From: Pseudomonadota bacterium
Lineage (GTDB): Bacteria > Bdellovibrionota_G > JALEGL01 > DATDPG01
DNA: 64,000 nucleotides
Reading direction: 5' to 3'
Assembly (NCBI GenBank): GCA_043809315.1
Contig: JAZDDX010000020.1
Coordinates: 64,001 to 128,000, forward strand
The notes beneath the pieces are model-generated. The model made no database searches and was not told the origin of the DNA. It was given only the letters and a program-made list of their open reading frames with translations. A program made the position numbers and the translations under genes. This document shows positions 17,496-46,154 of the stretch, piece by piece (the first letter of the stretch is position 1; each line of letters begins with the position of its first letter).

Positions 17496-17528
17496 TGAAT
17501 TTTTGCGCGGCAAAGGATAGTACGCGCC

Positions 17529-27392: not shown

Positions 27393-27512
27393 CGATTCAG
27401 CGGTAGTCAGTACTATGCGCCCCGCCCCAAGGCAAGCGCGCGCGGCGGCAAAGGGGTGACAGAAAAACGAACCGTTGATATGAAGGCGATCCCACGGGGA
27501 AAAGGAGAAAAC

Positions 27513-29015
27513 ATGGCTAAATTGGGGCTCGAAACTCACATCGTCGATCCGACCGTCTACGACCGGGTGATCCAGCGGTTCCGCGAGGCAAAAATCGCTC
27601 TTCCAACCTTCGCACAGCTGGCCGATCCAAAGACGATCCCGTCGAAGGTCCGCTCCGCTCTCGCGAACGTCGACCCGAACTCCCCGAACTCCTTGAACCT
27701 CTTCCGGGTTCATTGGTTCAACTCGGCGAATCAGAAAGAGATCGTCGACGTTCCGGAACATATCGTTCTCCCCCCCTCTTTGACGGGGGTCAAAGCCCAG
27801 ATCGTCGTCATGATCGGCGCCCACTTCCCGATGATCTCAGCCCACAAAGTGTTGGCCGCATACGGATGCCTCGTTCCCCGTCTCGTGACGGGGCAATTCG
27901 ACCCGGTCGCACACAAGGCGATCTGGCCCTCAACCGGAAACTACTGCCGGGGCGGCGTGGCGATCTCCCGCATCACCGGATGCCGGGGGGTAGCGATCCT
28001 GCCGGAGGGGATGAGCCAGGAGCGGTTCAACTGGCTCGACAAGTGGGTCTCCCATCCCGACGACGTGATCAAGACGTACGGAACCGAGAGCAACGTCAAG
28101 GAGATCTACGACAAGTGCAACGAGCTCGATCGGGATCCGAAGAACGTCATCTTCAACCAGTTCTGCGAATTCGGAAACCACCTGGTCCACTACCTCTGCA
28201 CCGGCAAAGCAGCCGAGACCGTCTTCAAGGCACAGCAAGCGAAGAATAGGGACTCCAGGCTTCGAGCCTTCGTCTCCTGTTCCGGCTCGGCCGGCACGAT
28301 CGCCGCGGGGGATTACCTAAAAGAGAAATTTGGGTCGCTGATCGTCGGCTCGGAAGCGGTGGAGTGCCCGACCATGCTCTACAACGGGTTCGGCGAGCAC
28401 AACATCCAGGGGATCGGGGACAAGCACATCCCGTACATCCACAACGTGATGAACATGGACGTGGCGGTCGGAATCACCGACAAGGCGACCGACACGCTCG
28501 ACGTCCTCTTCAACACGGAGGCCGGGCGGGAGTACCTCACCCAGCGGAAAGGAGTTCCGGCGGAGATCGTGAACCGCCTCTCCCTCCTCGGATTCTCCTC
28601 GATCTGCAACATCTTAAGCGCGATCAAGACGGCAAAGTACTACCAGATGAATGCACGCGACGTGGTCGTGACGGTCGCAACCGACAGCGCGGCGATGTAC
28701 GGAACCGAGCGTGAGAAAGCGCTCAAAAAGTATTTCCCGAAGGGATTCGACACCGTCGAGGCGGCCGAAACGTACGGACGACACATGGCGGGGACCCAAA
28801 TCGACCACCTCCGTGAGCTCTCGTTCCACGAACGGCACCGGATCTTCAACCTCGGCTACTACACCTGGGTCGAGCAACAGGGGGTGACGGTCGAAGAGTT
28901 CAACGCCCGGCGGAAGCCGGAGTTCTGGACGGAGCTTCAGACCCGGATCGCGGCGTGGGATAAGATGACGGAAGAGTTCAACAAGAAGACGGGCGCCCTG
29001 GATCGGATCGGATGA
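27513..29015 (+). CDS. Fold-type II PLP-dependent enzyme (cysteine synthase/Trp synthase beta superfamily), substrate unknown
   Basis: GGAG RBS; motifs AHKV (PLP lysine), WPSTGNYCRGG, GSAGT, HNIQGIGDKH. Confidence 0.88.
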   Translation: MAKLGLETHIVDPTVYDRVIQRFREAKIALPTFAQLADPKTIPSKVRSALANVDPNSPNSLNLFRVHWFNSANQKEIVDVPEHIVLPPSLTGVKAQIVVMIGAHFPMISAHKVLAAYGCLVPRLVTGQFDPVAHKAIWPSTGNYCRGGVAISRITGCRGVAILPEGMSQERFNWLDKWVSHPDDVIKTYGTESNVKEIYDKCNELDRDPKNVIFNQFCEFGNHLVHYLCTGKAAETVFKAQQAKNRDSRLRAFVSCSGSAGTIAAGDYLKEKFGSLIVGSEAVECPTMLYNGFGEHNIQGIGDKHIPYIHNVMNMDVAVGITDKATDTLDVLFNTEAGREYLTQRKGVPAEIVNRLSLLGFSSICNILSAIKTAKYYQMNARDVVVTVATDSAAMYGTEREKALKKYFPKGFDTVEAAETYGRHMAGTQIDHLRELSFHERHRIFNLGYYTWVEQQGVTVEEFNARRKPEFWTELQTRIAAWDKMTEEFNKKTGALDRIG

Positions 29016-30409
29016 CGGCGGCGGGCCCGACCTTCACCTGCAGCGGTTGCGAGTATGTCGTTCCGAAAACGGAACGGTATCCGTTCCGCTGCCCCAAGCA
29101 GAAGACCGGCGACAACATCGACCATGTCTTGCGGGAGGAACTTCCGGCCAAAGATCCGACCCTTGTGGCCCTTTTCGACTCGACGGAACCGAATCCGTTT
29201 CTGAAGTATCGAACCCTCTTTCACTCCTATCGTGCCGCCCGGTCCTGGGGGCTTTCGGATGCCGACTATATCGGGATCGTGCAACGCCTCGACGAAGCAG
29301 TCGCGAAGATCGACGGGCGCGGGTTCGTGGAGACCCCTTTCGCTTCGATCTCGAAACTCGGTGACGCACTTGGCTTCAAAGAACTGTGGGTAAAAGATGA
29401 AACCGGAAACGTCTCCGGTTCGCACAAAGCCCGTCACACCATGGGGATCATGATCTGGATGGAGATGGTCCGGAAGGCGTTCCCGAACGGATCCAATGAA
29501 CCATCTTTGGCGATCTCGAGCTGTGGAAACGCCGCACTCGCGGCAGCGGTCGTCGCGAAGGCGGCCGGCCGGACACTCGACGTCTTCGTCCCCCCCGACG
29601 CCCACCCGAACGTCGTCCACCGGTTGCAGGAACTCGGGGCCCGCCTCGTCACCTGTCGTCGCGAGGGGAATCAACCCGGCGACCCCTGTTATCTCCGCTT
29701 CAAAGAGGGGATCGCAAAAGGCTCCCTCCCGTTTACAGTTCAGGGGAACGAGAACGGGTTGACGATCTCCGGAGGGAAGACACTGGCCTATGAGATGGTC
29801 TCCCGATGGCGAAGCGGACGTCCGGTCGATCGTCTCTTCGTCCATGTCGGCGGTGGAGCGCTGGCGAGCGCGATCATTCAGGGGATGGAGGATGCGAAAG
29901 CGATCGGTCTCATCGATCGACTTCCCCGAATTCATACGGTTCAGACCGAAGGGGCTTATCCACTCGCGAGGGCGTACCAGAAAGTGGCCGAGCGAGTGGC
30001 GTTCCGAAATTTGTGCGCCGAAAAAGAAGTCGAGAAACGATCCATGTTCTTATCCACCGACAAATCGAGACAGATCGTGAACGAAGAGCTTTGGTTCGCG
30101 GCGAACCACCGTTCGACCTTCATGTGGCCGTGGGAGAGCGAGCCGAAGTCGATCGCGCACGGGATTCTGGATGACGAAACGTATGACTGGCACGCGGTCG
30201 TGGGCGGGATGCTCCGGAGCGGTGGATATCCCGTCGTTGTTTCGGAAGAGAATCTGAAAGAAGCCCACCGTCTCTGCCACGAGCATACGAAGATCCGCGC
30301 CGACCACACGGGAACCGCAGGCTTGGCCGGTGCCCTGAAGCTCCGTCAGGACGGAGTGATCCTTCCGAACGAGACGGTCGCCGTCCTCTTCACCGGCGTG
30401 GAACGCTGA
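29012..30409 (+). CDS. Threonine-synthase-like PLP enzyme with N-terminal Cys motif
   Basis: Motifs CSGC...RCP, KDETGNVSGSHKAR, SSCGNAA, VGGGAL, LFTG. ATGA coupling to the previous gene. Confidence 0.88.
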   Translation: MTAAGPTFTCSGCEYVVPKTERYPFRCPKQKTGDNIDHVLREELPAKDPTLVALFDSTEPNPFLKYRTLFHSYRAARSWGLSDADYIGIVQRLDEAVAKIDGRGFVETPFASISKLGDALGFKELWVKDETGNVSGSHKARHTMGIMIWMEMVRKAFPNGSNEPSLAISSCGNAALAAAVVAKAAGRTLDVFVPPDAHPNVVHRLQELGARLVTCRREGNQPGDPCYLRFKEGIAKGSLPFTVQGNENGLTISGGKTLAYEMVSRWRSGRPVDRLFVHVGGGALASAIIQGMEDAKAIGLIDRLPRIHTVQTEGAYPLARAYQKVAERVAFRNLCAEKEVEKRSMFLSTDKSRQIVNEELWFAANHRSTFMWPWESEPKSIAHGILDDETYDWHAVVGGMLRSGGYPVVVSEENLKEAHRLCHEHTKIRADHTGTAGLAGALKLRQDGVILPNETVAVLFTGVER

Positions 30410-30413
30410 CCGT

Positions 30414-30770: not shown

Positions 30771-30788
30771 CCGCTCTTTGGAGCCTGA

Positions 30789-30818: not shown

Positions 30819-30834
30819 TATGGGGTGTTGAGTC

Positions 30835-32866: not shown

Positions 32867-32960
32867 GTTCCGGCCTGCCCTTGGAGGGCCTTGCCGACGC
32901 TTTCCGGGTTCGTGATGAGCACCTGCTTCCCGCCGTTTTCGAGGTACCAGACCACCGCCT
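32851..32960 (-). pseudogene. Displaced 3' end of the carbamate kinase gene (repeat copy 1)
   Basis: Encodes AVVWYLENGGKQVLITNPESVGKALQGQAGTWIVP*. 32860-32960 is 92/101 identical to 33691-33791. Confidence 0.92.
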
Positions 32961-33697
32961 CAACCCGACAATCGAACTTCGATTCGATTGGACGTCACGC
33001 CTGCCGCGGTCACGCGGACCATGTGTTTTCCGGGAGCGACGCGGGGTTCGAGTTCCTCGAACCGGATATTGAAACCATACCCCCCATTCGGAGCCGCCAT
33101 GGGGTTTCCCGAGAAACGACTGACCCTATACCTGTGGATGGTTCCGTCCACCTCCACCGCGAAAACAATTGCAGGGCCAATCACCTGCACGGGCTGGGTG
33201 TCGTGGTTGAAGAAGTTACATTTCAAAAGCGGTCCCCCCTGCGAACGGGCACCGATAAACTCAATCATCAACGATGGAACCGCCTTCAGAGCTTCGAGCG
33301 GAACGATGTGGAACGAAGCTTTGTTGGATGGAACTCCGTTCACTGACAGAACCGTCTGGTACTCCCCGATCGGGAGGTGAAGGGGCGGATAGGCCACCCA
33401 CGTGGAGTGGGTCGCTCGGATCGGATCGGTCAGATCCTTCCAGGGATGGTCGTACATCGCTCTCCCTTTGGAATCGGTGATCACAATGTGGGCGTTCCGC
33501 AGCCGAACGGGCTTTTGCGACTCGGGGTAAACCCTGAATTGAAATACGACCGTTTGATCAGCCGTGTAGGCGACCGAACTCGTGTTTGCGGTTACTCGAA
33601 GCTGCTTATCGTTCGTCGGGGCCCCGCGCCCTTGACTGATCCCGACCGTGAACAGAGCCAGGAGAATAAGGGGCTTGGCAACTAGGGCGTGATCCAT
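32960..33697 (-). CDS. Secreted beta-rich hypothetical protein inserted between the repeats
   Basis: Signal-like N-terminus; two apparent Ig-like halves, ending V.GVPSN and AAGVTSN; lower GC. Confidence 0.75.
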   Translation of the reverse strand: MDHALVAKPLILLALFTVGISQGRGAPTNDKQLRVTANTSSVAYTADQTVVFQFRVYPESQKPVRLRNAHIVITDSKGRAMYDHPWKDLTDPIRATHSTWVAYPPLHLPIGEYQTVLSVNGVPSNKASFHIVPLEALKAVPSLMIEFIGARSQGGPLLKCNFFNHDTQPVQVIGPAIVFAVEVDGTIHRYRVSRFSGNPMAAPNGGYGFNIRFEELEPRVAPGKHMVRVTAAGVTSNRIEVRLSG

Positions 33698-34638
33698 GTA
33701 CCGGCCTTACCTTGGAGAGCCTTGCCGACGCTTTCCGGGTTCGTAATGAGCGCCTGTTTCCCTCCGTTTTCAAGGTACCAGACCACCGCCTGGATCTTCG
33801 GCGCCATCGAACCTTTCGCGAAATGCGTCCCCTCGGCGAGGTACTTCTTCGCCTCGGCCAGCGTCATTTTGTCCAGCCACTTCTGATCCGGCTTCCCGAA
33901 GTTGATGGCGACCTTTTCGACCGCTGTTGAGATCACGAAGAGATCGGCCTTGATGTTCTGGGCCAGAAGGCTCGTCGCGAAGTCCTTGTCGATCACCGCT
34001 GCGATTCCGATGTAATCGCCGTTCCCTTTGTCGACGACCGGGATTCCCCCACCGCCGGCGGTGATCACGATGATCCCCTTTTCGATCAGCGCTTTGATCG
34101 AATCGAGTTCGACGATCTCCTTCGGCATCGGAGAGGCGACCACGCGGCGCCAACCGCGCCCGGCATCCTCCGACACGCTCCACCCGGATTGTTCAGCCCG
34201 TTTTTTCGCTTCCGCCTCCCCCATGAACCCGCCGATCGGCTTGTTCGGGTTCGCAAAGGCCGGATCGTTCTTATCGACCAGCGTCTGCGTCACCAGGCTC
34301 ACGCACGACTTCTTGATCTTCCGGCGGAACAGCTCGTTCTGCAGGTTCTGCTGGAGCGCATACCCCAGAGCCCCTTGGCTGTCGGCGCCGCAGACGTCGA
34401 GCGGCACCTCGTGCAGCCCTTCCACCCGGTGGGCGATCTCGCTCCTTCGCAAGATGAACCCGACCTGCGGACCGTTCCCGTGCGTCACCACGACCTCCCA
34501 CCCCGCCTCGATCATGTCGGCGATGTGGTAGCAGGTCTGTTTTGCCGCTTGGTACTGGTCCGAGACCGAACGACGATCCTGATCGACGATCAGCGAGTTC
34601 CCGCCGATCGCGACCACCGCGGTTTTTTTTGTGCCCAT
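33682..34638 (-). CDS. arcC: Carbamate kinase
   Basis: Motifs VAIGGNSL, THGNGPQVG, PNKPIG, RRVVASP, GGGGIPV, AVIDKD, GSMAPK. Confidence 0.96.
   Translation of the reverse strand: MGTKKTAVVAIGGNSLIVDQDRRSVSDQYQAAKQTCYHIADMIEAGWEVVVTHGNGPQVGFILRRSEIAHRVEGLHEVPLDVCGADSQGALGYALQQNLQNELFRRKIKKSCVSLVTQTLVDKNDPAFANPNKPIGGFMGEAEAKKRAEQSGWSVSEDAGRGWRRVVASPMPKEIVELDSIKALIEKGIIVITAGGGGIPVVDKGNGDYIGIAAVIDKDFATSLLAQNIKADLFVISTAVEKVAINFGKPDQKWLDKMTLAEAKKYLAEGTHFAKGSMAPKIQAVVWYLENGGKQALITNPESVGKALQGKAGTWITP
33691..33791 (-). repeat. 101-bp direct repeat copy 2 (current 3' end of arcC)
   Basis: Ungapped match to 32860-32960 with 9 mismatches; offset 831 bp. Confidence 0.95.
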
Positions 34639-34648
34639 GGTTTCTCCT

Positions 34649-35629
34649 TTACGCCATCGTGAGGGCCATGACGGCCTTCTGCGCGTGCATCCGGTTCTCC
34701 GCCTCGTCGTAGACGACCGAGTGCGGGCCGTCGATCACGGCATCGGTCACTTCGACGTTCCGGTCGGCCGGGAGCGGGTGCATGTAGATGGCGTCCGGCT
34801 TGGCAAGCTTCATCTTTTTCTCGTCCGTGATCCAGGACGAGTACTTCTTGATGATCTCGGCCCCTTTCGCCGCATCGGTCGTGGTCAGCATCGCCCCCCA
34901 TGACTTCGCGTAGACGATGTCGGCCCCCTTGCAAGCCTCCTCCATGTTGTCGGTCATCTCGAAGCCGGTGCCGTATCTCTTCGCTTCCGACTTTGCCGCC
35001 TCCATGACCTCCGGCATCAACTTGAACTCCGGCGGATGGGCCAGAACCACATCCATGCCGAACCGGGGCATCTGAAGGACCAGCGATTGCGGGACGCTCA
35101 TCGGCTTCTGGTACGAAGCCGCGTACGCCCACGAAACCACCATCTTCTTCCGGCGCAGGTCCCTCCCCTTCTTCTCGATGATCGTCATCAAGTCGGCCAG
35201 ACACTGGAACGGATGGTAGACATCGCACTGCATGTTGAGGACCGGCGATCGCGAGTGCTTCGCGACGTCGTTCAGGTACTTGTTCCCAAGCCCCCAATCA
35301 CAGTGACGGATGGCGATCCCATCAAAGTAGCGCCCGAGGATCTCGCCGATCTCCTTCGGCGTATCGCCGTGGGCGATCTGCGTCGTCTTACTCTCGATGA
35401 AGGCGGCGTGCCCTCCGAGCTGCGCCATCCCCGCTTCAAACGAACAGCGGGTCCGTGTCGACGAGAAGAAGAAGAGCATCGCGAGCGTCTTGTCGTCCAG
35501 GTACTTGTGGGCTTCTCCCAGAGCGCGCTTCCGCTTCAGATCCCATGCCACGTCCAATACGGTCTCGACCTCCTCTTTCGTGAAGTCGAGGTCGCCGATC
35601 AGGTCCCGGTTTCGCAGGTTCGTTTGCAT
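34649..35629 (-). CDS. YgeW-related (knotted-type) carbamoyltransferase
   Basis: Motifs SSTRT, NMQCDVYHPFQ, SWAYAASYQKPMSVPQS, RFGMDVVLAHP, YAKSW, MHPLPADR, as in YgeW; shorter than E. coli YgeW. Confidence 0.85.
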   Translation of the reverse strand: MQTNLRNRDLIGDLDFTKEEVETVLDVAWDLKRKRALGEAHKYLDDKTLAMLFFFSSTRTRCSFEAGMAQLGGHAAFIESKTTQIAHGDTPKEIGEILGRYFDGIAIRHCDWGLGNKYLNDVAKHSRSPVLNMQCDVYHPFQCLADLMTIIEKKGRDLRRKKMVVSWAYAASYQKPMSVPQSLVLQMPRFGMDVVLAHPPEFKLMPEVMEAAKSEAKRYGTGFEMTDNMEEACKGADIVYAKSWGAMLTTTDAAKGAEIIKKYSSWITDEKKMKLAKPDAIYMHPLPADRNVEVTDAVIDGPHSVVYDEAENRMHAQKAVMALTMA

Positions 35630-35632
35630 CGC

Positions 35633-36592
35633 CTACTCCCGGATTCCCATGACGAGGGCCAGGAGCGACATCCGCATCACGACGCCGTTGAACGCCTCCT
35701 GCCAGTACCGCGACCAGCGGGTGATATCGACATCCGAGGGGATCTCGTCCATCCGCGGGAGCGAATGGAGAAGGATCGCGTCCGACTTCGCTTTCTTCGA
35801 GAGAAGCTCGCGCGTGATCTTGTAGTTGGCGGGGGTCAAATCGACCTCCTGCCCCTTATCCCGTTCCTGCCGCGACTTCGTGTAGTCGGGCTGAACGACC
35901 GGCTCGACCAGGATGACGTCGGCGTCGCCGATCGCCTGCTCGACATGCTCCGCTTCCTTGAAGTTCAGGTTGTACTCTTTCAGCTCCTTCTTGAACTCCG
36001 GCTTCAAGCTCAGCTCCGGGGGAGCGACGAACGTGATCGGGCAGTCGAACTGCGTGAGGGCGTAGGCCAAGGAGTGCATCGTCCGCATCCGCATGTCGCC
36101 GACCGCGAGCCATTTGAGGCCGTCGATCCGTCCCTTTTCCTGCTGCACAGTATAGAGGTCGGTCAGAATTTGCGTCGGGTGTTCGCCCCAGCCGTCGCCG
36201 CCGTTGATGATCGGAACGGAGGCCCACTTCGCCGCTTCGTGCGGGGCCCCTTGTTGGAAGTGCCGCATGACGATCACGTCGCCGTAGAACTCGAGCATCT
36301 TGACCGTGTCTTTGATCGACTCCTGATAAAAGTCGCCGGCCCGGGTCATTTTCGCATCGGAGAAGCCGTTCACGTGGCCGCCGAGACGGTGCATTGCCGC
36401 CTCGTGCGCGAGGCGCGTACGGGTTGACGGCTGATAGAACGCCGTCACCATCGTCTTGTCCTTCAATAGGTCGCTGTTTCGCCGGTTCCGAGCGATCGGC
36501 TCCAGCTCCTTGGCCACCTCGAACGTCCGGAAGAACTCGTTCCGTTCGAAATCTTTAAGCGAAAGAATGTCCCGTCCCGCGAAGCTGCGCAT
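35633..36592 (-). CDS. Aspartate carbamoyltransferase-like protein with altered acceptor site
   Basis: Motifs QPSTRTR, VMRH, NGGDG..EHPTQ, HSLPR are present. The canonical KGE and TRxQxER aspartate-binding motifs are absent. Confidence 0.85.
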   Translation of the reverse strand: MRSFAGRDILSLKDFERNEFFRTFEVAKELEPIARNRRNSDLLKDKTMVTAFYQPSTRTRLAHEAAMHRLGGHVNGFSDAKMTRAGDFYQESIKDTVKMLEFYGDVIVMRHFQQGAPHEAAKWASVPIINGGDGWGEHPTQILTDLYTVQQEKGRIDGLKWLAVGDMRMRTMHSLAYALTQFDCPITFVAPPELSLKPEFKKELKEYNLNFKEAEHVEQAIGDADVILVEPVVQPDYTKSRQERDKGQEVDLTPANYKITRELLSKKAKSDAILLHSLPRMDEIPSDVDITRWSRYWQEAFNGVVMRMSLLALVMGIRE

Positions 36593-36730: not shown

Positions 36731-38050
36731 TTAGAACCGGGCCCAGAGGGCGGTGGAGAGCTCGCGGGCACGGGCGGAAATGCGGGGTTCGTCGATCCCG
36801 ATCAACTTCTTCCCTTGCATGAGAACCTTCCCGCCGACGATCGTCGTGTCGCACGCGACCTGCGACAACCCGAACAGCAGGTGCCCCAGGAACGTCTGGT
36901 CGCTGAACTCGGTCGGCGGGTCGTAGTCGAAGAGGGCGAAGTCGGCCTTGTACCCTTCCCGGATCTCTCCGATCTTCGCCGGGAAAAGCCTCTGCGCGAT
37001 CTTTGCGTTGTTCGAAAGGAGGGCGTTCAAGACCTCCATGAACCCGACGCTCGGCTCCTTCTTCGAAAGATGAAGCACCCAGAGCGCGCACCGGGCCTCC
37101 TCCAACATGTTCTCGGTCATCGCGTCGGTCCCCAAGCCAACCAGGATCTTTTTCTGAACCATCTTCAGGAGATCTGCGACGCCGACTGCGTTGTTCATGT
37201 TCGACTGCGGGTTGTGGACCAGGATCGTGTCGCTCTCGGCCAGAAGATCCATCTCCCGGTCATTCAAGTGAACGCCGTGGGCACAGATCGTTTTCTTCCC
37301 GAGTATCCCGAACTTCTTGAGCCGCTCGACGACGCGCATCTTGTGCGTCTTCTCGCACTGTTCCTGGTCGGATGCCGCTTCGGCCGTATGGACATGAAAT
37401 CCGGCGTTCAAACCCCTCGACGCCTCCACTGCGCGCTCCAACGTCTTGTCCCCGATCGTGAATTGCGCATGCAACCCGAAGAGACCGGTCAACCGGTCGG
37501 TCGGCTTCCGCTTTAAGAACTCGACGTTCTCCTGGATCCCTTCGGCAGCTTTTTCCGGACCATCCCGGTCGGAAAGCTCGTAACAGAGGCAGGCCCGAAT
37601 TCCGGTTTCCGCGACGGCATCGGCAATCTTCGATAACGACCCGGTGATAGCGAACGGGCTCGCATGGTGATCGATCCCCGTCGTCGTCCCGTGGCGGATC
37701 GCATCGATCGCGGTCAAGAGGGCACTGTAATAGTTGTCGTCGGCGGTCAGTTTCTTGTCCAGCCTCCACCAGAGATTCTCCAGTACTTCGACGAAGTTCT
37801 TCGACAGCTTCGCCTTCCCGAGGCCTCGCGAAAAAGCGCTATAGAAATGGGTGTGGGCGTTGATGAAGCCGGGGAGAACGACTTTCCCCTTGGCATCGAT
37901 CGTCGTGTCGGTCTTCTCTTTTCCGAGTTCAGAGTCGGGTCCGACCTTACGGATCGTGTCCTCTTCGACCAGAACCGAATGATTCGGGAGAACCCGGTTC
38001 GAAGCTCCCAACGTCACGACCGTCCCGTTCCGGATCAACATTCGCTTCAT
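36731..38050 (-). CDS. ssnA: SsnA-like amidohydrolase
   Basis: Motifs INAHTHFYS, LENLWWRLDK, IDHHAS, CYELSDRDG, GLHAQFT, HNPQSNMNNAVG, LGTD. Confidence 0.9.
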   Translation of the reverse strand: MKRMLIRNGTVVTLGASNRVLPNHSVLVEEDTIRKVGPDSELGKEKTDTTIDAKGKVVLPGFINAHTHFYSAFSRGLGKAKLSKNFVEVLENLWWRLDKKLTADDNYYSALLTAIDAIRHGTTTGIDHHASPFAITGSLSKIADAVAETGIRACLCYELSDRDGPEKAAEGIQENVEFLKRKPTDRLTGLFGLHAQFTIGDKTLERAVEASRGLNAGFHVHTAEAASDQEQCEKTHKMRVVERLKKFGILGKKTICAHGVHLNDREMDLLAESDTILVHNPQSNMNNAVGVADLLKMVQKKILVGLGTDAMTENMLEEARCALWVLHLSKKEPSVGFMEVLNALLSNNAKIAQRLFPAKIGEIREGYKADFALFDYDPPTEFSDQTFLGHLLFGLSQVACDTTIVGGKVLMQGKKLIGIDEPRISARARELSTALWARF

Positions 38051-40614
38051 TACAGCACCTTCTTGTCTTTGATCGGCAGCGTGTACCGCCGTTTCTTGTC
38101 GTACTGGTAGAGTGCGTTCGCGACCGCCGCCGGTGTCGGGACGAGGCCGATCTCGCCGACCCCCTTCGCGCCGAACGGACCGTTCGGATCGGCCACCTCA
38201 ACTCCTTTGACCACCACCTTCGGCATTTGCTTCGCGCGGAGAACACCGCACTTCGCCAGCTTATCGAAGACCAGGTGCCCGTCCTTCATCGGAAGCTCTT
38301 CTGTCAGCGCATACCCGAGCCCCATATGGATCGACCCCTCGATCTGCCCCTCGAAGAGGGTCGGGTTCATGATCCTCCCGGCGTCGTGGGCGGCATAAAC
38401 CGTGTCGATCTTGCCGTTTTCATCGAGCACCACGACCTGAGTCGCATACCCGTACGAGTAGTGCGTGTGATGCTCCCCCTTCTCGTTGGGATGGTCCGGC
38501 TTCGTCGTCCAATCGCAGTTCCATTCCCCGGCGTAAAGCTTGCCCGAAAGCTCTTTCAAGCTCTTCTTCTTGAGATCGGCTTTCAGCTCTTTGCAGGCAT
38601 TGATCACCGAATGAGCCAGGAGCGACGTCCCGCGCGAAGCGGTCGTCATCCCGCAGACCGCCTCGGCCGATGTGTCGACCCGGACCTCCACGATCGACGG
38701 GTCGATCCCGGTCTCCTCGCAGAGCGCCTGGACCCCCATCGTGTGGATCCCCTGCCCCATCTCGGTCCAGCCATGATGGAGAATCACTTTTTTCTCCGAA
38801 ACGATCTCGATCTTGCACCGGCCAGTGTCCCACATCCCGTTTCCGATCCCGGTGTTCTTGATGCCGCAGGCGATCCCGGCATGTTTCGCTTTCCGAAAGA
38901 CGTCTTTGAGCGCAAGGAGCGTCTGGCGGACCCCCGCACCGCCCCGAATGATCTGTCCGGTCGTGATCATCTCTCCGTCCCGGACGGCGTTGTCATACCG
39001 GAACTGCCACCGGTCGAATCCCCCCTTTTCGCAGAGTTCGTCGATCAAGCTTTCGATTGCAAAGGTCGACTGGGGGACGCCGAACCCCCGCATCGCCCCA
39101 CACGGGATGTTGTTGGTGTAGACCTCGAGCCCTTCGACGTCGACGTTCGGGACGATGTACGCCCCCGCCGCGTGCCCCACGGCCCGCTCGACGACCTTGG
39201 CCCCGACTGAAGCGTAGGCGCCGCCGTCGGCAACCATTCGTGCGTAGAGAGCGGTCAGCTTCCCGTTCTTGTCACACCCGACCTTGTAATCCATGACGAA
39301 CGGGTGGCGCTTCGGGTGCATCCGAATCGACTCGGTCCGGTCGAGAATGATTCCAACCGGCTTTTTTGTGAGCCAAGAAGCGAGCGCCGCATGCCCCTGA
39401 ACGGTCAGGTCTTCTTTCCCTCCGAACCCTCCCCCGGTTTCGACCTGAATGACGTTCACGTTCGATTCGGGAAGTTTCAGGAGCTTGGCGATCTGGGTCC
39501 GATCTTCGTACGCCCCCTGCCCCTGGGAGAAGACTTTGAGCCCCTCCTTGGACGGTTCGACGAAGCAGGCTTCCGGCTCGGCGAAGGCATGTTCGACCCG
39601 TTGAGTGGTGAAACGTCCTTCCGACCGGTAGGCAGACTCAGCTAATGTTTTTTCTACATTTCCACGCTTAACCATGCTTACCGAAAGAATATTTCCATTC
39701 TTATGAATCTTCGGTGCTTGCGGTTTCAGAGCTTCGAACGGATCGGTGACGGGAGTCAGAACCTCATACTTTATCTCGATCGCGTCGACCGCTTTTCGGG
39801 CGATCGACACGCTATCGGCGGCAACGCAAGCGAGGACATCTCCGATGTATCGGGTCTCCTCCCCTTCCCGGATCATGAGCGGCCAGTCTGGGGTAATCGT
39901 CCCCATCCTCCGGTCGCCGGGGATCTCCTTGGCGGTGAAGATCCCTTGGACGCCGGGGATCTTCTTCGCCTTCGACGTGTCGATCGAGACGACCTGAGCA
40001 CGGGGGTGATCGCTGAACTTGAGCGCCCCGTGGAGCATCCCGTCCCGTTTCATGTCGCCGACGAAGATGTGCCGGCCGAGAACGAGATCGCGGGCGTTGT
40101 ATTTCGAGTATCGCTTCCCGACACCGGCGGAGAGAGTCTTGCGAGGGACCTTCTTGTTCTCCCGGATTGCTTCCGCCGCCAGGAGGATCGCATCGACGAT
40201 CTTGTGGTACCCGGTGCAGCGGCAGAGGCTCTTATTCAGATTCTGGACGACCTGTTCGCGGGTCGGGGTCGGATTCTTATCCAGCATCGCTTTCGCCTGG
40301 ATCACGATCCCCGGCGTGCAGAAGCCGCATTGGACCGCTCCTTTTTCGACGAACGCATCGGCGAACGCGTCCTGGATTCGCGGCTCCCATCCCTCGATGG
40401 TGACGACCTTGGCCCCTTCCACATCCTTCATCAGCGTGTGACAGGAAAGGGTGGTCTTGTTCTCCAGTTCTACGGAACAGTACCCGCAGGCTCCCTCCCC
40501 CGCACAACCCTTTCGGACGGAGGTCAGCCCCGCGATGTCACGCAGGTAGTCGAAGAGAGAGAGTTCCGGATCGCCCGAGTAGTTGATCTCCTTGCTGTTG
40601 AGCCGAAACCGCAT
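38050..40614 (-). CDS. Single-chain FeS-Mo hydroxylase, selenium-dependent xanthine dehydrogenase (XdhD-like) type
   Basis: Two [2Fe-2S] motifs fused to a Mo domain; GGGFGGKED, HPKRHP, AMRGFG, GIACGIKNTGIGNG, TTASRG, GAKGVGEI; no FAD domain. Confidence 0.9.
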   Translation of the reverse strand: MRFRLNSKEINYSGDPELSLFDYLRDIAGLTSVRKGCAGEGACGYCSVELENKTTLSCHTLMKDVEGAKVVTIEGWEPRIQDAFADAFVEKGAVQCGFCTPGIVIQAKAMLDKNPTPTREQVVQNLNKSLCRCTGYHKIVDAILLAAEAIRENKKVPRKTLSAGVGKRYSKYNARDLVLGRHIFVGDMKRDGMLHGALKFSDHPRAQVVSIDTSKAKKIPGVQGIFTAKEIPGDRRMGTITPDWPLMIREGEETRYIGDVLACVAADSVSIARKAVDAIEIKYEVLTPVTDPFEALKPQAPKIHKNGNILSVSMVKRGNVEKTLAESAYRSEGRFTTQRVEHAFAEPEACFVEPSKEGLKVFSQGQGAYEDRTQIAKLLKLPESNVNVIQVETGGGFGGKEDLTVQGHAALASWLTKKPVGIILDRTESIRMHPKRHPFVMDYKVGCDKNGKLTALYARMVADGGAYASVGAKVVERAVGHAAGAYIVPNVDVEGLEVYTNNIPCGAMRGFGVPQSTFAIESLIDELCEKGGFDRWQFRYDNAVRDGEMITTGQIIRGGAGVRQTLLALKDVFRKAKHAGIACGIKNTGIGNGMWDTGRCKIEIVSEKKVILHHGWTEMGQGIHTMGVQALCEETGIDPSIVEVRVDTSAEAVCGMTTASRGTSLLAHSVINACKELKADLKKKSLKELSGKLYAGEWNCDWTTKPDHPNEKGEHHTHYSYGYATQVVVLDENGKIDTVYAAHDAGRIMNPTLFEGQIEGSIHMGLGYALTEELPMKDGHLVFDKLAKCGVLRAKQMPKVVVKGVEVADPNGPFGAKGVGEIGLVPTPAAVANALYQYDKKRRYTLPIKDKKVL

Positions 40615-40689: not shown

Positions 40690-43188
40690 ATGCCGATCAT
40701 GACCGAAGCCCAGATCCGTCACGAGATTTCGCGGTGCGAGTACTGCGAGAAGAAACCGTGCCGGGACGGCTGCCCCGCGCACTGCTCCCCGGCCGATTTC
40801 ATCATGGCGATCCGGGTCGGTTCCCAGGCCGATTACCTCCGCGCCGCCGGCGAGATCTTGGGCAAAAACCCCCTCGGCGGGATCTGCGGGGCGGTCTGCC
40901 CCGAGCGTCATTGCATGGCAGCCTGCTCCCGTGAGGCGCTCGACAAGCCGATCGAGATCCCGAGCCTCCAGGAAACGATCATCCGGAAAGCGGCCGGCGG
41001 AACGGGGTATCCGGTGTTCGAAGAACCGCTGGAGAATGGAAAAAAGATCGCGATCATCGGTTCCGGCCCATCCGGCCTCGCCGCGGCCTTCACTCTTTCC
41101 CACCTCGGATACCGTGTCGAGATCTTCGAACAGGACCGGCGACCCGGAGGGGCCCTAAACCTGATCCCCCCGCACCGTCTCCCTCCGGAAGTCCTGAATG
41201 GAGACCTCAAGTTTCTCCTTTCGTCGAAACGGATCACGCTTCACCTCGGCGAGAAGATCTCCAACCCGAAACACCTGGTCGGCTACGACGCCGTGATCGT
41301 GGCGGTCGGGTTGACCGACCCGGTCCGGCTCGGGATCCCCGGGGAGGAGAAAGCGATCACCGGGTGGGAGTACCTCTCGGACCCAGCACAGTTGAAAATC
41401 CATGGTCCGGTCGCCGTGATCGGCGGCGGAGCGGTCGCGCTCGACTGCGCCGTCACCGCACGCCGCAGGGGGGCGAAACAGGTCGAGATCTTCTCGCTCG
41501 AAAAGTTCAGCGAGATGCCGCTTGCCGCTCGCGAACGACACGAGATTCTCGAAACCGGTATCCATGTGAACGGACGAATGCGCGTCACGAAGATCGTGAC
41601 CGGCCCCGGCGGAATCACTGGGATCGAAACCGTCCGGATCGCCTATCCGAAGGGGGATCGGAGCCTCGACGCCACACCCGAGAAACCGGAACCGTTCGAT
41701 CCGAGGGGGATCGTCGATCTTCCCGGAACGGAGCAGAAGCGTCCCGGATTTGACCACGTCATCGTCGCAATCGGGCAACGCCCGTCGATCAAGACAACCG
41801 CCGACATGCACGTCGCCGGCGACTGCGTGACCGGTCCTTCGACCGTCGTCGAGGCCGCAGCCGAGGGGAAAAGCATCGCGGTCGAGATTCACTCCCGTCT
41901 GACCGGTACGCCGTACGTCTGCCCCGACCGCCCGCGGAAGAGCCGTGCCACGATCTCCGGATTCCGGAATTGCCCCGTTCCGCTCGAGACCGATTTCTTC
42001 GGCCGGAAGATCCCCTCCCCCTTCCTCCTTTCCGCCGCCCCACCGACCGACGGGTACGAGCAGATGAAGAAAGGGCTCCAGGCAGGATGGGCCGGCGGGA
42101 TCATGAAGACGGCGTTCGACGGGATCCCGATTCATATCCCCTCCGAGTACATGTTTACGTTCGACTCCAAGACGTGGGGAAACTGCGACAACGTCTCGGG
42201 GCACGCGCTCGAACGCGTTTGTCGAGAGGTCGAAAAGCTGACGAAAGAGTTCCCCGATCGGCTGATCATGGCATCGACCGGTGGTCCGGTGACCGGGAAT
42301 GACGCCGATGACGCGAAGGGGTGGCTAAGCAACACGAAGAAGCTCGAGTCGGCCGGCGTGATGGGGATCGAGTATTCGCTTTCCTGCCCGCAAGGGGGGG
42401 ACGGCACCGAAGGGGACATCGTTTCCCAGAATGCGGCGCTGACGGTGAAGATCATCGAGTGGGTTCTTCAAAAGAGTGACCCAAACGTCCCAAAGCTGTT
42501 CAAACTGACGGCCGCGGTCACCTCCATCCCGAGCATCGTCGCGCCGATCAAAGTGCTCTTATCCAAATACCCAAAAGCGAAGGTCGGGATCACGCTCGCG
42601 AACACTTTCCCGACCCTCGCCTTCCGTCCGGCGAGCGGAAAGAAGTGGGACGAAGGAGTGATCGTCGGGATGAGCGGCGAAGGGGTGACGCCGATCAGCA
42701 ACCTGACGCTGGCAAAGGTGGCGCCATTGGGCGTCGCAGTCTCCGGGAATGGCGGGCCGATGAACTACAAGGCGGCCGCCGATTTCCTGGCCTTGGGAGC
42801 CCGCACGGTTCAGTTCTGCACCGCCGCGATGAAGTACGGATATGGCGTGATCGATGAGTTGCACTCCGGGTTGAGCTATCTCATGAAAGAGCGAGGCATC
42901 GGTTCGGTGGAGGAGCTGATCGGCATCGCCCTCCCGAATCCGGTGACCGACTTCATGGCGCTTTCGGCGACCAAGGGGATCTCCGCGGCACACGACGAGA
43001 TCTGTGTGAGCTGCGGCAACCGCACCCGCTGTCCGTACCTTGCAATCACGCTCGACACCCAGAACCACCCCGTGACCGACGCATCGAAATGCGTCGGGTG
43101 CAGCATCTGCGCGAAGATGTGCATGTCGGGGGCGCTCTATCTTCGGGAACGAACCGCCGATGAGTTGGTTTCTCTTAAGGAAAGCTGA
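40690..43188 (+). CDS. Dihydropyrimidine dehydrogenase-like fused flavo-FeS protein (PreT-like + PreA-like + ferredoxin)
   Basis: N-terminal Cys clusters, GSGPSG, GGGAVALD, TIM barrel with LSCP, KLT, ANT and VQFCT, C-terminal ferredoxin. Confidence 0.88.
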   Translation: MPIMTEAQIRHEISRCEYCEKKPCRDGCPAHCSPADFIMAIRVGSQADYLRAAGEILGKNPLGGICGAVCPERHCMAACSREALDKPIEIPSLQETIIRKAAGGTGYPVFEEPLENGKKIAIIGSGPSGLAAAFTLSHLGYRVEIFEQDRRPGGALNLIPPHRLPPEVLNGDLKFLLSSKRITLHLGEKISNPKHLVGYDAVIVAVGLTDPVRLGIPGEEKAITGWEYLSDPAQLKIHGPVAVIGGGAVALDCAVTARRRGAKQVEIFSLEKFSEMPLAARERHEILETGIHVNGRMRVTKIVTGPGGITGIETVRIAYPKGDRSLDATPEKPEPFDPRGIVDLPGTEQKRPGFDHVIVAIGQRPSIKTTADMHVAGDCVTGPSTVVEAAAEGKSIAVEIHSRLTGTPYVCPDRPRKSRATISGFRNCPVPLETDFFGRKIPSPFLLSAAPPTDGYEQMKKGLQAGWAGGIMKTAFDGIPIHIPSEYMFTFDSKTWGNCDNVSGHALERVCREVEKLTKEFPDRLIMASTGGPVTGNDADDAKGWLSNTKKLESAGVMGIEYSLSCPQGGDGTEGDIVSQNAALTVKIIEWVLQKSDPNVPKLFKLTAAVTSIPSIVAPIKVLLSKYPKAKVGITLANTFPTLAFRPASGKKWDEGVIVGMSGEGVTPISNLTLAKVAPLGVAVSGNGGPMNYKAAADFLALGARTVQFCTAAMKYGYGVIDELHSGLSYLMKERGIGSVEELIGIALPNPVTDFMALSATKGISAAHDEICVSCGNRTRCPYLAITLDTQNHPVTDASKCVGCSICAKMCMSGALYLRERTADELVSLKES

Positions 43189-43192: not shown

Positions 43193-43915
43193 TCACTTCT
43201 TCGAATCGGGCCCGATCGGAATCACGTCGTCTGAAAGATAGATGCCGAGAGGGCTGACGCCGGGTTTCCCTACCGGGACCCGTTCCCCCCTCTTCTTGAA
43301 ATAATCTTTCCAGATTTTCCACGCACGATCGCGAGGGTTTCGCGGATCCCCGAAGTACATCGGCCGATACGAAAACAGTCTGCGATTGGGCAAGGCCTTG
43401 GAGAAGACGTCCGCGACCAGCTCAGAGCAATAGTACTTCCCGTTATTCCGGAGAAACGCTTCGTCGTAAGGTCTCCCCAAATATCGCTTCGCGACCCCGA
43501 CGATGCGCACGCGATCCTCCAAGGAAAGACCCCGGATGTGTCCGAACCGCCGCCGTTGTTCGGGGTGCGGAAGCTTCCTCAGGCGGGCACTCACTTTTTC
43601 ATACGGAGTCCGTTGAACCCCGTCCCAAGCCTCGTACAGGAACCAGCGCCCCTCCTCCTCTGAAAGAATACCGACATGCGACAGAGAGGGTCCCTTCACG
43701 CGGAATTGCCGTTTCGTGACGTCCGCGATCGCGTCACACAACTTGCCGCATCCCAAATCAAGAAACACGAGATCGCCGGACTGAATCGCCGGCGGACTCG
43801 CAACGGGCGGAGGAGGGGGTGGGACACACGCCGAAGAGATGAGTCCGACAAGGAGCGCCAGGATTCTGAATTCGGGGTTCAGTCGTTTGTCCCCATTACC
43901 GGAATTCCCGGACAA
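43193..43915 (-). CDS. YiiX/YebB-like permuted NlpC/P60 lipoprotein
   Basis: Lipobox-like ISSAC; motifs GDLVF, SHVGI, LGRPYD, YYCSELV. Start uncertain. Confidence 0.82.
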   Translation of the reverse strand: MSGNSGNGDKRLNPEFRILALLVGLISSACVPPPPPPVASPPAIQSGDLVFLDLGCGKLCDAIADVTKRQFRVKGPSLSHVGILSEEEGRWFLYEAWDGVQRTPYEKVSARLRKLPHPEQRRRFGHIRGLSLEDRVRIVGVAKRYLGRPYDEAFLRNNGKYYCSELVADVFSKALPNRRLFSYRPMYFGDPRNPRDRAWKIWKDYFKKRGERVPVGKPGVSPLGIYLSDDVIPIGPDSKK

Positions 43916-46154
43916 TCTCCCAGAGCGTTTCGCGGACGACCGTGTTTTCGCGGAAATAAACCGTTTCTTTGAGTCGATCCTGGCACGACTCGAGAAGCGA
44001 AGTGATCACCCCGTCGACGGATTTAGTGATCGTCTCTTCGTCCTCTTTCTTGGCCAGCGCTCGGAGCCCCTCGGTCCCGACCTTTTGTTCCTTCAGAACA
44101 CGCGCCAAATCGGAATGGATGAGTTTCATCCCTTCCCGGATCCCCGCCTGTTCCTTCTCCGGCGACTCCGCAGACATCTTGAGTTTCTCTTTCCTGTCGA
44201 CCACCTCCTGGAACCGATCGATCGCCTCGCTTGAGCACAAAGCCGCTGCGAACTTGGTGGTCAGCTCCTCGGACGTCAACGCCTTCGGCTCGCTCTTCCC
44301 GCGCTTCACCTTGTCGATCATCCGGATCACCTCTTTTTTCCGGTCGATTGCTTCGTACGCCTGCTCCATCGCGTAGAGGTAGCCGTCCCACGCTTTCCCT
44401 TTCTTGAGAAAGAGGATCATTTTCTTCACCTTCGGGAACGCTTCCGGCCGGATCGACGAGCCATACGTGTCGAGGATCGAGATCGGGTACGGCTTCCCTT
44501 TTTTCAGGTCGGTGGCGATCGCGTCGAACAGTTTCTGGTTGGGTGATTGCACACGGAACTCCACCGGCAGGATCAGATCATCGGAGTTGAACAGGGTTTC
44601 CCGCGACAGAAACCGTTCCTCGTTCTTCGCCGTTTTTTCGGGAAAAGCTCGCGTGGCTAGGACGATCGTTTCAGACGCCGCAACTACCTCTTCCAACGAT
44701 TTCTCGAGAGTCGAAGCGGTGGTCCGCCCGCCGGCCAAACAGAACAGGCCGGCCAGCGCCATCCCCATCCCTTGTCGGAGAAGCCGACCGAATCCCTTTT
44801 TCCCCACGAAGCCCCCTTCCCGTGCACCCACCCGGCCGCGCAAGATCACGGTCTCTGGGGATCCCCGGACCTCCATCCCTTCATAGAGGTTGTAATCGAC
44901 ACGCATGTGGTGAGTCTGAGGATTTTTCGCGCTCATCGTCTTCTCCCGGTTCGGATCGAAAATCACGAGATCAGCGTCACTTCCGACGGCGATCGTTCCT
45001 TTTTTCGGATATAGGCCAAAAAATTTCGCGGCCGCCGTCGATGTGATCTCGATGAACAGGTTGACCGAGATCCGTCCGTCGACGACCCCTTGATAGAGAA
45101 GACTCATCCGGTTCTCCACCCCCGGCCCTCCCCCGGGAATCTTCGTGAAGTCGATCTTCGATCCCTCGACTTTTTCTTTTAGCAGGAAAGGACAGTGGTC
45201 GGTGCCGACGCACTGGATATCGCCATCCGCCAGCCCTTTCCACAGCGCCTCTTGATCCTGTTTCCCTCGGAGCGGAGGGGACAGCACATATTTCGCCGCT
45301 TCCCCTGGGTCTTGATCGTAGAGGGAACGATCTAGGAAAAGATATTGGGGGCAAGTTTCTGTCACGACTTTCAAACCCCGCGTGCGAGCGTGGTGAATTT
45401 CTTCGAGGCCTTCCTTCGACGACAAGTGCACCACGTAAAGGGTTGCTCCTGTCTGCTCGGAAAGGAGGATCATCCGGCGGATGGCATCGGCCTCGGTGGA
45501 GTTCGGCCGGGTCAATGCATGATACTTTGGTGCGGTCTGCTTCTTCTGGAGAGCCTCGACGATCCGTCTCTCGATCTCCGGACCATCTTCGCAATGGAGG
45601 CAGATGACGGAGCCATCTTTCACACTCTGCCGCATCGCCTGTTCGATCACAGAATCGGGCAACATGAGGCGCCCAGGGTAGGCTGTGAAAAACTTAAATG
45701 ATCTCGTTCCGTCGAGAGTCAAGGCTGACATCTCAGGCAAACGCTCGTTCGGAAGGTCGCACACCATCATATGGAAGGCGTAATCAATGACCGCCTTCCC
45801 CTCCGCCTTCCGGCGCCATTCGTCCAACCCCTCCCGTAACGAACGACCTTTTGTCTGCCCGGCGTAGTCGATTACCGTCGTCGTCCCACCGCAGGCAGCG
45901 GCGATCGTCCCAGTCTCAAAGTCATCCGACGAGACGGTGTCGCCGTACGGCATGTCGAAATGGGTGTGAGGATCGATCCCCCCCGGAATCACGAGCTTCC
46001 CGGTCGCGTCGATGGTCAGGTCCGCAGTACGATTCAGCTTGGATCCGATCTTCGCGATCGTCTCCCCTTCCACATAGACATCTGCGGTGAGCGTCTTTTC
46101 GGCCGTAACGACCGTCCCACCCCGGATCAGGAGCGAACTATTCTTGCGCGGCAT
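43896..46154 (-). CDS. hydA: Dihydropyrimidinase/D-hydantoinase, in frame with a ~290-aa unrelated C-terminal region
   Basis: Motifs PGGIDPHTH, SFKFF, LHCED, VVHLS, ETCPQYL, TDHCPF, DADLVIFDP in aa 1-~462. The extension starts MGMALAGLFCLA. Confidence 0.88.
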   Translation of the reverse strand: MPRKNSSLLIRGGTVVTAEKTLTADVYVEGETIAKIGSKLNRTADLTIDATGKLVIPGGIDPHTHFDMPYGDTVSSDDFETGTIAAACGGTTTVIDYAGQTKGRSLREGLDEWRRKAEGKAVIDYAFHMMVCDLPNERLPEMSALTLDGTRSFKFFTAYPGRLMLPDSVIEQAMRQSVKDGSVICLHCEDGPEIERRIVEALQKKQTAPKYHALTRPNSTEADAIRRMILLSEQTGATLYVVHLSSKEGLEEIHHARTRGLKVVTETCPQYLFLDRSLYDQDPGEAAKYVLSPPLRGKQDQEALWKGLADGDIQCVGTDHCPFLLKEKVEGSKIDFTKIPGGGPGVENRMSLLYQGVVDGRISVNLFIEITSTAAAKFFGLYPKKGTIAVGSDADLVIFDPNREKTMSAKNPQTHHMRVDYNLYEGMEVRGSPETVILRGRVGAREGGFVGKKGFGRLLRQGMGMALAGLFCLAGGRTTASTLEKSLEEVVAASETIVLATRAFPEKTAKNEERFLSRETLFNSDDLILPVEFRVQSPNQKLFDAIATDLKKGKPYPISILDTYGSSIRPEAFPKVKKMILFLKKGKAWDGYLYAMEQAYEAIDRKKEVIRMIDKVKRGKSEPKALTSEELTTKFAAALCSSEAIDRFQEVVDRKEKLKMSAESPEKEQAGIREGMKLIHSDLARVLKEQKVGTEGLRALAKKEDEETITKSVDGVITSLLESCQDRLKETVYFRENTVVRETLWEIVREFR

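Follow-up and report, generated by a model that had tools for sequence, protein, structure and literature searches.

In a 64,000-nucleotide stretch of contig JAZDDX010000020.1 (the window, part of contig C20 of the assembly G000, which has 2.42 Mb in 44 contigs and is 96% complete), three minus-strand genes follow directly after ssnA within a purine-catabolic island. They encode an aspartate carbamoyltransferase (ATCase)-like protein (P0001), an ornithine carbamoyltransferase (OTC)/YgeW-like protein (P0002) and a carbamate kinase. Based on gene content, motifs, family placement and co-occurrence, all of which were observed directly, it was concluded that this trio probably, though far from certainly, forms the ATP-yielding end of the reductive (2,8-dioxopurine) urate pathway, in which both ureido groups would be phosphorolysed and two ATP gained per urate. 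A broader proposition was given an even chance of being right, namely that the hydrolase YgeY has repeatedly given way to an ATCase-derived enzyme in this pathway, giving two ATP per urate, in a module present in about one-fifth of one large Chloroflexota class and in at least one other phylum.

From these data we infer all the substrates, the order of the steps and the two-ATP yield. It was proposed that the xanthine dehydrogenase (XDH)-type enzyme, a dihydropyrimidine dehydrogenase (DPD)-like reductase, SsnA and a hydantoinase would lead to 2,3-diureidopropionate. One ureido group would then be taken off with phosphate by P0002, as by E. coli YgeW, and the other, again with phosphate, by P0001, at the step performed through hydrolysis by YgeY in the known pathway. 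Both carbamoyl phosphates would be turned into ATP by the carbamate kinase. A final deamination of 2,3-diaminopropionate by nearby pyridoxal phosphate (PLP) enzymes was proposed because YgeX is absent.

The minus-strand run of purine genes reads, in the order of transcription, permease, adenosine deaminase, D-hydantoinase, selenium-type XDH, SsnA, P0001, P0002 and carbamate kinase, with gaps of 138 bp between SsnA and P0001, 3 nt between P0001 and P0002 and 10 nt between P0002 and the kinase. The SsnA aminohydrolase (36731..38050, minus strand) scored 545 bits with NF005540 (cut-off 444), and the selenium-dependent XDH-type molybdoenzyme, XdhD/DOPDH-like and with a fused 2Fe-2S domain (38050..40614, minus strand), scored 924 bits with TIGR03311 (cut-off 830). 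The carbamate kinase (33682..34638, minus strand; TIGR00746, 382 bits, cut-off 358) was 51% identical to E. coli YqeA and was the only one found in the G000 genome. A HyuA-like domain was recognized at residues 8-460 of the D-hydantoinase (43896..46154, minus strand; TIGR02033, 567 bits, cut-off 393; 42% identity to E. coli HyuA). A plus-strand DPD-like fusion of GltD-like, PreA/DHODH-like and 4Fe-4S parts (40690..43188), with all its NCBIfam matches under cut-off, is a candidate that may perform the YgfK/UacX step. The P0001 gene stands within a complete reductive-urate gene set, and the order reported in the sequence-only reading, with ATCase-like, YgeW-like and carbamate kinase genes directly after ssnA and an XdhD-like gene, was confirmed by gene calls and family scores. 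The absence of YgeY from the window, also reported there, was borne out and extends to the whole G000 genome: the best match to TIGR03526 reached 89 bits (cut-off 321.5) and came from an ArgE-like gene of the arginine operon, which lies on a different contig from the window. YgeX, YgeW, PyrI and allantoinase likewise had no match over cut-off in the G000 genome.

Active site and family of P0001

The carbamoyl-phosphate motifs of P0001 (319 aa; 35633..36592, minus strand) were found as STRTR at residue 56, MRH at 109, HPTQ at 138 and HSLPR at 276, and the previously noted STRT, HPTQ and HxLPR were all in their places. At the sites of the ATCase motifs KGE and TRxQ, the protein carries GDFYQES (86) and VEPVVQPD (229). 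In E. coli ATCase, Lys84 and Arg229 are needed for aspartate binding; both are ligands of the beta-carboxylate, and Arg167 is a ligand of the alpha-carboxylate. Alignments to P. abyssi ATCase (1ml4), to 89 cluster representatives and to E. coli PyrB placed a Tyr at the Lys84 position and a Pro at the Arg229 position of P0001. The loss of the aspartate-binding motifs, as first read from the sequence, was thereby upheld, and the retention of Arg105 and Arg167 (MRTMHS), the latter unmentioned before, was added. In the alignment to E. coli PyrB, positions 229-231 read P-V-V instead of R-V-Q, and the RxQ motif is lost; in this one alignment an 'ER' pair of P0001 matched Glu233-Arg234 following an 8-residue insertion. 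Insertions were also seen in the 80s and 240s loops, and acidic residues were gained beside the changed ligands.

The replaced beta-carboxylate ligands and the gained acidic residues are as would be expected for a CH2-NH3+ or CH2-NH-CO-NH2 side chain, and the chemistry proposed for P0001 was considered plausible on these grounds. P0001 would most likely act on the N-alpha-ureido group, because ATCase chemistry takes place at the alpha-nitrogen and because Arg167 is kept while Lys84 and Arg229 are lost.

P0001 aligned end to end with solved ATCases, the top match being P. abyssi 1ml4 (E 9e-70), and its third motif is HSLP rather than the HP[LG]P of PyrB. Among the curated PyrB models, it passed the cut-off of TIGR00670 (255.8 against 236.95 bits) and fell below that of PRK00856/NF002032 (227.9 against 263 bits); the canonical PyrB proteins of other carrier genomes gave 310-388 bits. 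A family alignment was made of 89 proteins of 290-360 aa, out of 150 cluster representatives listed, and two kinds were distinguished, a canonical one (KGE, RxQ, HPLP) and a non-canonical one (a 'T-R-A-G-D-x-Y-x-E' loop and no RxQ). In a quick tree of 92 rows (84 representatives after five broken- or chimeric-looking ones were dropped, plus eight added rows), P0001 was positioned inside a 29-row group that was entirely non-canonical, with a Shimodaira-Hasegawa-like approximate likelihood ratio test (SH-aLRT) value of 88, and apart from E. coli PyrB and the canonical PyrB of the relatives G001 and G004. The combination of kept STRT and HPTQ, a changed third motif and a lost RxQ is that of the pseudo-ATCases of Barba et al. 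2013, and, as judged from its sequence, P0001 is a member of them. The coexistence of a pseudo-ATCase with a genuine ATCase was absent in the G000 assembly and present in 40 of 50 other carriers and in the relative G001.

These results were weighed against the reading that P0001 is, or doubles as, the aspartate carbamoyltransferase of the organism for pyrimidine synthesis. P0001 was the sole G000 match over the TIGR00670 cut-off, and pyrC-carA-carB (C16), pyrF and a pyrE-like gene are present in this genome. A canonical PyrB, recognizable by KGE, RxQ and HPLP, is encoded in the relatives G001 and G004, and neither the TIGR00670 model nor tblastn with the G001 protein detected a canonical pyrB or a second ATCase in G000; no PyrB over 300 bits was found in 10 of the 50 other carriers either. 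However, Lys84 and Arg229 are replaced, a canonical PyrB (>300 bits) accompanies the pseudo-ATCase in the remaining 40 carriers, and the gene lies in a catabolic operon with carbamate kinase, not among pyr genes. The G000 assembly, at 96% completeness in 44 contigs, could have lost pyrB in a gap. Hence the separate canonical pyrB that was looked for was encountered in most other carriers and not in G000, where P0001 was the only candidate. By its sequence, the P0001 gene is not a housekeeping pyrB, and a role in pyrimidine synthesis was regarded as the least probable of the readings weighed, with very little credence given to it.

Near the other pyrimidine genes it was observed that pyrC-carA-carB of G000 (C16:46310-52615) lies directly after lepA with no pyrB upstream, and that the canonical pyrB of G001 adjoins orthologues of the permease and adenosine deaminase genes of the window. 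Four carbamoyltransferase genes were counted in G000: P0001, P0002, an acetylornithine carbamoyltransferase in the arg operon on C38 (409 bits, cut-off 288) and an OTC with an SMG motif. The last (C5:60602-61008) is truncated at the contig end and shows a frame change just after its HCLP motif, which could be an assembly error or mark a pseudogene. A biosynthetic reading, with carbamate kinase feeding an ATCase and an OTCase, was rejected, as carB and the arg-operon acetylornithine carbamoyltransferase are located elsewhere in G000 and as P0001 and P0002 lack the canonical second-substrate motifs.

P0001 was the most conserved member of the trio. Among 62 loci picked for their likeness to P0001, the median pairwise identity was 88%, while the OTC-like protein reached 80% and the carbamate kinase 74%. 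This conservation holds although nearly all other carriers are from outside the small phylum to which the genome of the window belongs. For the loci L029-L108, defined below, the median identity to P0001 of the window was 87% at the amino-acid and 77% at the nucleotide level, and the same codon was used at only 49% of identical residues. Recent horizontal transfer was ruled out by these values as a source of the 85-90% identity to Chloroflexota proteins. Because synonymous sites are largely randomized, the likeness points to strong constraint or to an old transfer.

P0002 and the co-occurrence of the trio with YgeY

The middle gene of the trio encodes P0002 (326 aa; 34649..35629, minus strand), which was assigned by comparison with E. 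coli, by the quick tree and by its context in other genomes. It stayed under all NCBIfam cut-offs, including those of OTC (272 against 306 bits), acetylornithine carbamoyltransferase (256 against 288 bits) and the YgeW models TIGR03316 and NF005538 (198 against 500 and 207 against 453 bits). The nearest E. coli protein was YgeW (35% identity over 348 aa; ArgI, 31%). P0002 is about 70 aa shorter and without the YgeW insertions, yet YgeW-type sequence blocks are common to both proteins. Its HPFQ fits the YgeW motif HP[TMF]Q, and its HPLP does not fit H[AVC]LP. In the quick tree P0002 was sister to E. coli YgeW (SH-aLRT 89, with thin sampling), and genes of its type adjoin carbamate kinase and YgeY in SsnA-bearing genomes, a catabolic placing like that of ygeW. 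The earlier label 'YgeW-like' was thus kept on the strength of the nearest protein and the shared blocks, while no model score supported it. P0002 is the YgeW equivalent of this lineage, which explains why true YgeW was found in none of the 201 genomes described next.

The relation of P0001 to YgeY was studied in a class sample of 201 genomes (>=90% complete), evenly drawn from the Chloroflexota class of the carrier G050. P0001 orthologues were present in 43 of them, P0002-type orthologues (>=65% identity; best E up to 1e-140, where the matches show a natural gap) in 103, SsnA over cut-off in 156, YgeY over cut-off in 159 and a CysK-like PLP enzyme in 168. When the P0002 type occurred without P0001 (61 genomes), YgeY was found in 59 and SsnA in 60. 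Among the 43 genomes with P0001, SsnA was over cut-off in 40, and YgeY in 31, so that it was missing in 12; the contrast of 59/61 with 31/43 gave a Fisher p of 0.0007, uncorrected. YgeY matched strongly in 56/61 genomes without and 12/43 with P0001 (E up to 1e-125; this limit was set after the data were seen and serves as a proxy for the operon-linked subtype). YgeY within about 5 kb, as read by eye from coordinates like the P0001-P0002 adjacencies and the SsnA distances given below for this sample, was noted in 46/61 (measured from the P0002 gene) and 11/43 genomes, respectively. The drop in strong matches fits a hydrolase giving way to a second phosphorolysis. Without the pseudo-ATCase, YgeY is near-obligatory; with it, YgeY becomes dispensable.

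Three operon states were distinguished, where YgeW' stands for the P0002 type: YgeY-YgeW'-carbamate kinase; YgeY-pseudo-ATCase-YgeW'-carbamate kinase; and pseudo-ATCase-YgeW'-carbamate kinase without YgeY. The window represents the third state, placed directly after ssnA. For the first state, carbamate kinase was immediately downstream of the P0002-type gene in 4 of 5 genomes that were checked and that had no pseudo-ATCase, and the YgeY-P0002-carbamate kinase operon is the functional counterpart of E. coli ygeW/ygeY/yqeA. In the simplest account of these states, the pseudo-ATCase would do the step of YgeY by phosphorolysis, and YgeY would then be expendable. Genomes with and without YgeY were interspersed across the P0001 identity bands of 86-90%, 81-85% and 67-75%, and this interspersion argues for several independent losses of YgeY, as far as such sequence bands can tell. 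In the family of G000, SsnA and the trio travel together: both occur in G000 and G001 and neither in G002-G004. In G001, SsnA and the trio share one small contig and YgeY is absent; G002-G004 are without SsnA, trio and YgeY.

There seem to be two parallel pairs in the class, a high-scoring YgeY with the P0002 type and a lower-scoring YgeY adjoining a P0002 paralogue of about 345 aa (for example in G085, G107, G132 and G235). In the class sample the CysK-like PLP enzyme is no less widespread than SsnA and often lies beside it (for example in G106, G114, G115, G128, G130 and G185). It is a candidate replacement for diaminopropionate ammonia-lyase. The PLP enzymes were rejected as markers specific for the trio, since the CysK-like enzyme occurs in its 168 genomes whatever the status of the trio.

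In 42 of the 43 P0001 carriers the P0002 type was also present, and the two genes were adjacent in 39. This near-obligate adjacency, together with the unusually high conservation of P0001 described above, would be consistent with P0001 and P0002 forming one hetero-oligomer, or a channelling complex with carbamate kinase, which carries out a single YgeW-type step with no second ureido removal by P0001. The P0002 type, however, works without P0001 in 61 of the 104 sampled genomes with either gene, P0001 itself has a complete carbamoyl-phosphate site, and the loss of YgeY would be left unexplained. A joint complex was therefore held to be improbable, if slightly less so than a PyrB role.

The wider distribution was assessed from sequence matches and genome scans. 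P0001 relatives among the 120 matches listed were 87-98% identical, and those that were named were called aspartate carbamoyltransferase. A pattern scan of species-representative genomes recovered at least 567 stretches encoding a relative, and the best 80 of these (L029-L108, 85-90% identical to P0001) were nearly all in records titled Anaerolineae, Anaerolineales or Chloroflexota. In the phylum of G000, the gene was found in 2 (G000 and G001) of 15 genomes that were >=85% complete. Across the 80 loci, the OTC-like gene following P0001 was detected in 71, carbamate kinase in 62, a GntR regulator in 61, 8-oxoguanine deaminase in 50 (691 bits, cut-off 532), adenine deaminase in 48, a ThrC-like PLP enzyme in 29, a YgeY-family hydrolase directly upstream of the P0001 gene on the same strand in 27 (461 bits, cut-off 321.5) and a CysK-like PLP enzyme in 10; loci without the OTC-like gene or the kinase were mostly cut by contig ends. 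Sufficient flanking sequence on either side was available for 61 of the loci, and of these 17 had YgeY only, 24 a PLP gene without YgeY, 3 both and 17 neither. The order XDH-SsnA-ATCase-OTC-carbamate kinase-PLP-PLP recurs in locus L078, and SsnA is adjacent in L055. Whole-genome searches of the 50 other carriers found SsnA over cut-off in 41 and canonical YgeX in 1.

Several side features of these loci were noted. The 8-oxoguanine and adenine deaminase genes lie about 2.5-6 kb upstream of the trio, and a PnrA/Bmp-type nucleoside ABC transporter comes after it in many loci. In L091 (genome G069) the pseudo-ATCase (87% identity) stands apart from a distant OTC-like gene (34%) and a carbamate kinase (40%), which are on the other strand; G069 is the only one of the 50 genomes with canonical YgeX.

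Several of these results weigh against a second phosphorolysis by P0001. The expectation that pseudo-ATCase and YgeY exclude each other failed: the two coexist in 31/43 carriers and share one operon in 27/80 loci, where the enzymes would be redundant. Some carriers may draw their hydrolase from a second pair present in the class, YgeY-B and a YgeW-like-B gene that is 47-55% identical to P0002. The co-occurrence counts ignore relatedness, the genome lists behind them were copied out manually, and post hoc thresholds were used for two of the three contrasts. The want of a second ATCase in G000, described above, is a further such point. Lastly, G000 has no canonical 2,3-diaminopropionate ammonia-lyase and YgeX is confined to the single carrier mentioned, which makes the proposed last step and its end product a guess. 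On the other side stand the position of the trio directly after ssnA within the purine-catabolic island and the phosphorolysis of allantoate, another diureido acid, by a group-1 pseudo-ATCase (PMC4016543). The proposal that a repurposed ATCase phosphorolyses the second ureido group hence kept its non-PyrB sequence, its urate gene set and a dispensable YgeY, and it lost strict exclusivity.

The coexistence with YgeY also leaves room for a non-overlapping role, in which P0001 would be a catabolic carbamoyltransferase for another ureido compound and only P0002 would act on diureidopropionate. Candidate substrates are allantoate, N-carbamoyl-beta-alanine (formed when uracil is reduced), carbamoyl-aspartate (formed from orotate) or an intermediate from an earlier point of urate breakdown, for instance ureidomethyl-hydantoin. 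One pseudo-ATCase has been assayed as an allantoate phosphorolase (PMC4016543), the DPD-like reductase and the dihydropyrimidinase-type hydantoinase of the cluster could also process pyrimidines, and most loci have the trio beside the two deaminases and the nucleoside transporter, not beside SsnA; in the class sample SsnA was <=15 kb from P0001 in 7 of the 43 carriers. No allantoinase over cut-off was present in G000, however, and the kept Arg167 suggests an alpha-carboxylate, which ureidomethyl-hydantoin and N-carbamoyl-beta-alanine lack. P0001 adjoins P0002 in nearly all sampled carriers, and another substrate would leave it unexplained that nearly all losses of YgeY fall in genomes with P0001. 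Such a role was considered unlikely, although it was given more weight than the other alternatives, and removal of the second ureido group of 2,3-diureidopropionate by P0001 was preferred.

Surroundings of the trio in the window

Two PLP enzymes are encoded on the plus strand. The CysK/TrpB-like one (27456..29015, start uncertain) is a candidate substitute for the missing YgeX, and the ThrC-like one (29012..30409) is a second candidate for the last step. The feeder genes of the purine run are an adenosine deaminase (46138-47145, minus strand) and a xanthine/uracil-family permease (47162-48469, minus strand). A second xanthine dehydrogenase, of the XdhA/XdhB type, is encoded at 13834..17513 (minus strand), and molybdenum-cofactor genes occupy 23516-27824.

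The hydantoinase frame has a C-terminal extension of about 290 residues (43896-44774, minus strand), in which a charged helical region follows a hydrophobic stretch and which has no Pfam match. Either this is a true fusion, or a separate lipoprotein-like gene downstream is read through because a stop codon is missing. At 57882-63543 (minus strand) a NuoF-like protein has as its neighbour a 1256-aa fusion protein, partly HoxU/GltD-like and partly formate-dehydrogenase/NuoG-like, and together they could be a complex that supplies electrons to the reductive steps. Downstream of the carbamate kinase, the open reading frames 31415-32866 (membrane protein) and 32960-33697 (secreted protein) had no family match and look unrelated to the trio. 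A promoter and terminator scan of 30300-41000 gave no signal over the shuffled expectation.

Comparison with known systems

The pseudo-ATCases were described by Barba, Dutoit, Legrain and Labedan in 2013 and divided into three subgroups (PMC4016543); the same account is repeated in the review PMC4581275. Subgroup 1 (HPLA) includes Rxyl_2847, assayed as an allantoate phosphorolase; subgroup 2 (H[ST]LP) is a Nocardioides sp. JS614 gene that adjoins a ygeW homologue, xdhABC and hyuA and has no assigned function there; subgroup 3 (HSLP) is marine. P0001 shares with subgroup 2 the ATCase annotation, STRT and HPTQ, the H[ST]LP motif, the lost RxQ and the ygeW/xdh/hyuA neighbourhood. At positions 229-231, as aligned to E. 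coli PyrB, its P-V-V matches neither the GX[SC] published for subgroup 2 (positions 230-232) nor, unshifted, the VXP of subgroup 3. In terms of these published motifs and contexts, P0001 combines a subgroup-2 context with an HSLP motif.

The ureidoglycine carbamoyltransferase Rxyl_2847 of Rubrobacter xylanophilus is, like P0001, a catabolic ATCase paralogue beside carbamate kinase, and it phosphorolyses allantoate, a diureido acid of purine breakdown, in arsenate and OTCase-coupled assays (PMC4016543). It has HPLA instead of HSLP and serves an oxidative uricase/allantoinase route, whereas G000 is without an allantoinase over cut-off; the single HPLA-type representative in the quick tree fell in another sub-branch than P0001. 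One of the proposed steps is the reverse of that of L-2,3-diaminopropionate transcarbamylase (zwittermicin, viomycin), which interconverts diaminopropionate plus carbamoyl phosphate and beta-ureidoalanine (albizziin). That enzyme, compared by its description in PMC4581275, is biosynthetic, has an HDLP motif and belongs to the OTCase side of the family. With canonical PyrB (E. coli; P. abyssi 1ml4), P0001 has in common the fold family, the carbamoyl-phosphate site and Arg167, and it differs by the replaced Lys84 and Arg229, the loop insertions, the absence of a detectable pyrI in G000 and the catabolic operon.

The idea had been put forward as undescribed. This stands for the double phosphorolysis of 2,3-diureidopropionate, which, like the displacement of YgeY and the compact YgeW type, was not found in full-text searches; the main texts of the two pathway papers make no mention of ATCase or pyrB. 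It does not stand for the pseudo-ATCase family, the RxQ loss, the ygeW/xdhABC/hyuA placing and allantoate phosphorolysis, which were in print in 2013 (PMC4016543). In the counts of Li et al., every PF00185 protein close to SsnA was scored as 'YgeW', a procedure by which P0001-type and P0002-type genes would not have been separated.

If the proposal is true, pseudo-ATCases would gain a function; they have been known since 2013, and sources that give them a name still call them aspartate carbamoyltransferase. Anaerobic urate breakdown would then be credited with twice its present substrate-level ATP yield, and a hydrolytic step would be seen replaced by an energy-conserving one. The two pathway papers disagree on which ureido group is removed by YgeW, and PMC12990295 lists as open which one YgeW and which one YgeY removes. 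The proposal would offer a handle on this question: replacement of YgeY by an ATCase-type enzyme favours YgeY acting on the 2-ureido group, the order of Liu et al., and the natural substrate of YgeY would then be a 2-ureido compound.

The reductive urate pathway of E. coli and C. sporogenes comprises XdhD-YgfM, YgfK, SsnA, HyuA, YgeW, YqeA, YgeY and YgeX, and YgeW together with YqeA has been demonstrated to form ATP by way of carbamoyl phosphate (PMC12507026; bioRxiv 10.1101/2025.04.24.650524; PMC12990295). The Chloroflexota version uses neither true YgeW (0 of the 201 class genomes) nor YgeX (1 of 50 carriers), and searches with the E. coli gene set will therefore under-call the pathway. G000 has in common with E. 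coli and C. sporogenes SsnA, a HyuA-like hydantoinase, an XdhD-like enzyme, a YgeW-related carbamoyltransferase and carbamate kinase. It differs in having a DPD-like fusion for YgfK, two other PLP enzymes and, with neither YgeY nor YgeX, a second carbamoyltransferase that is derived from ATCase.

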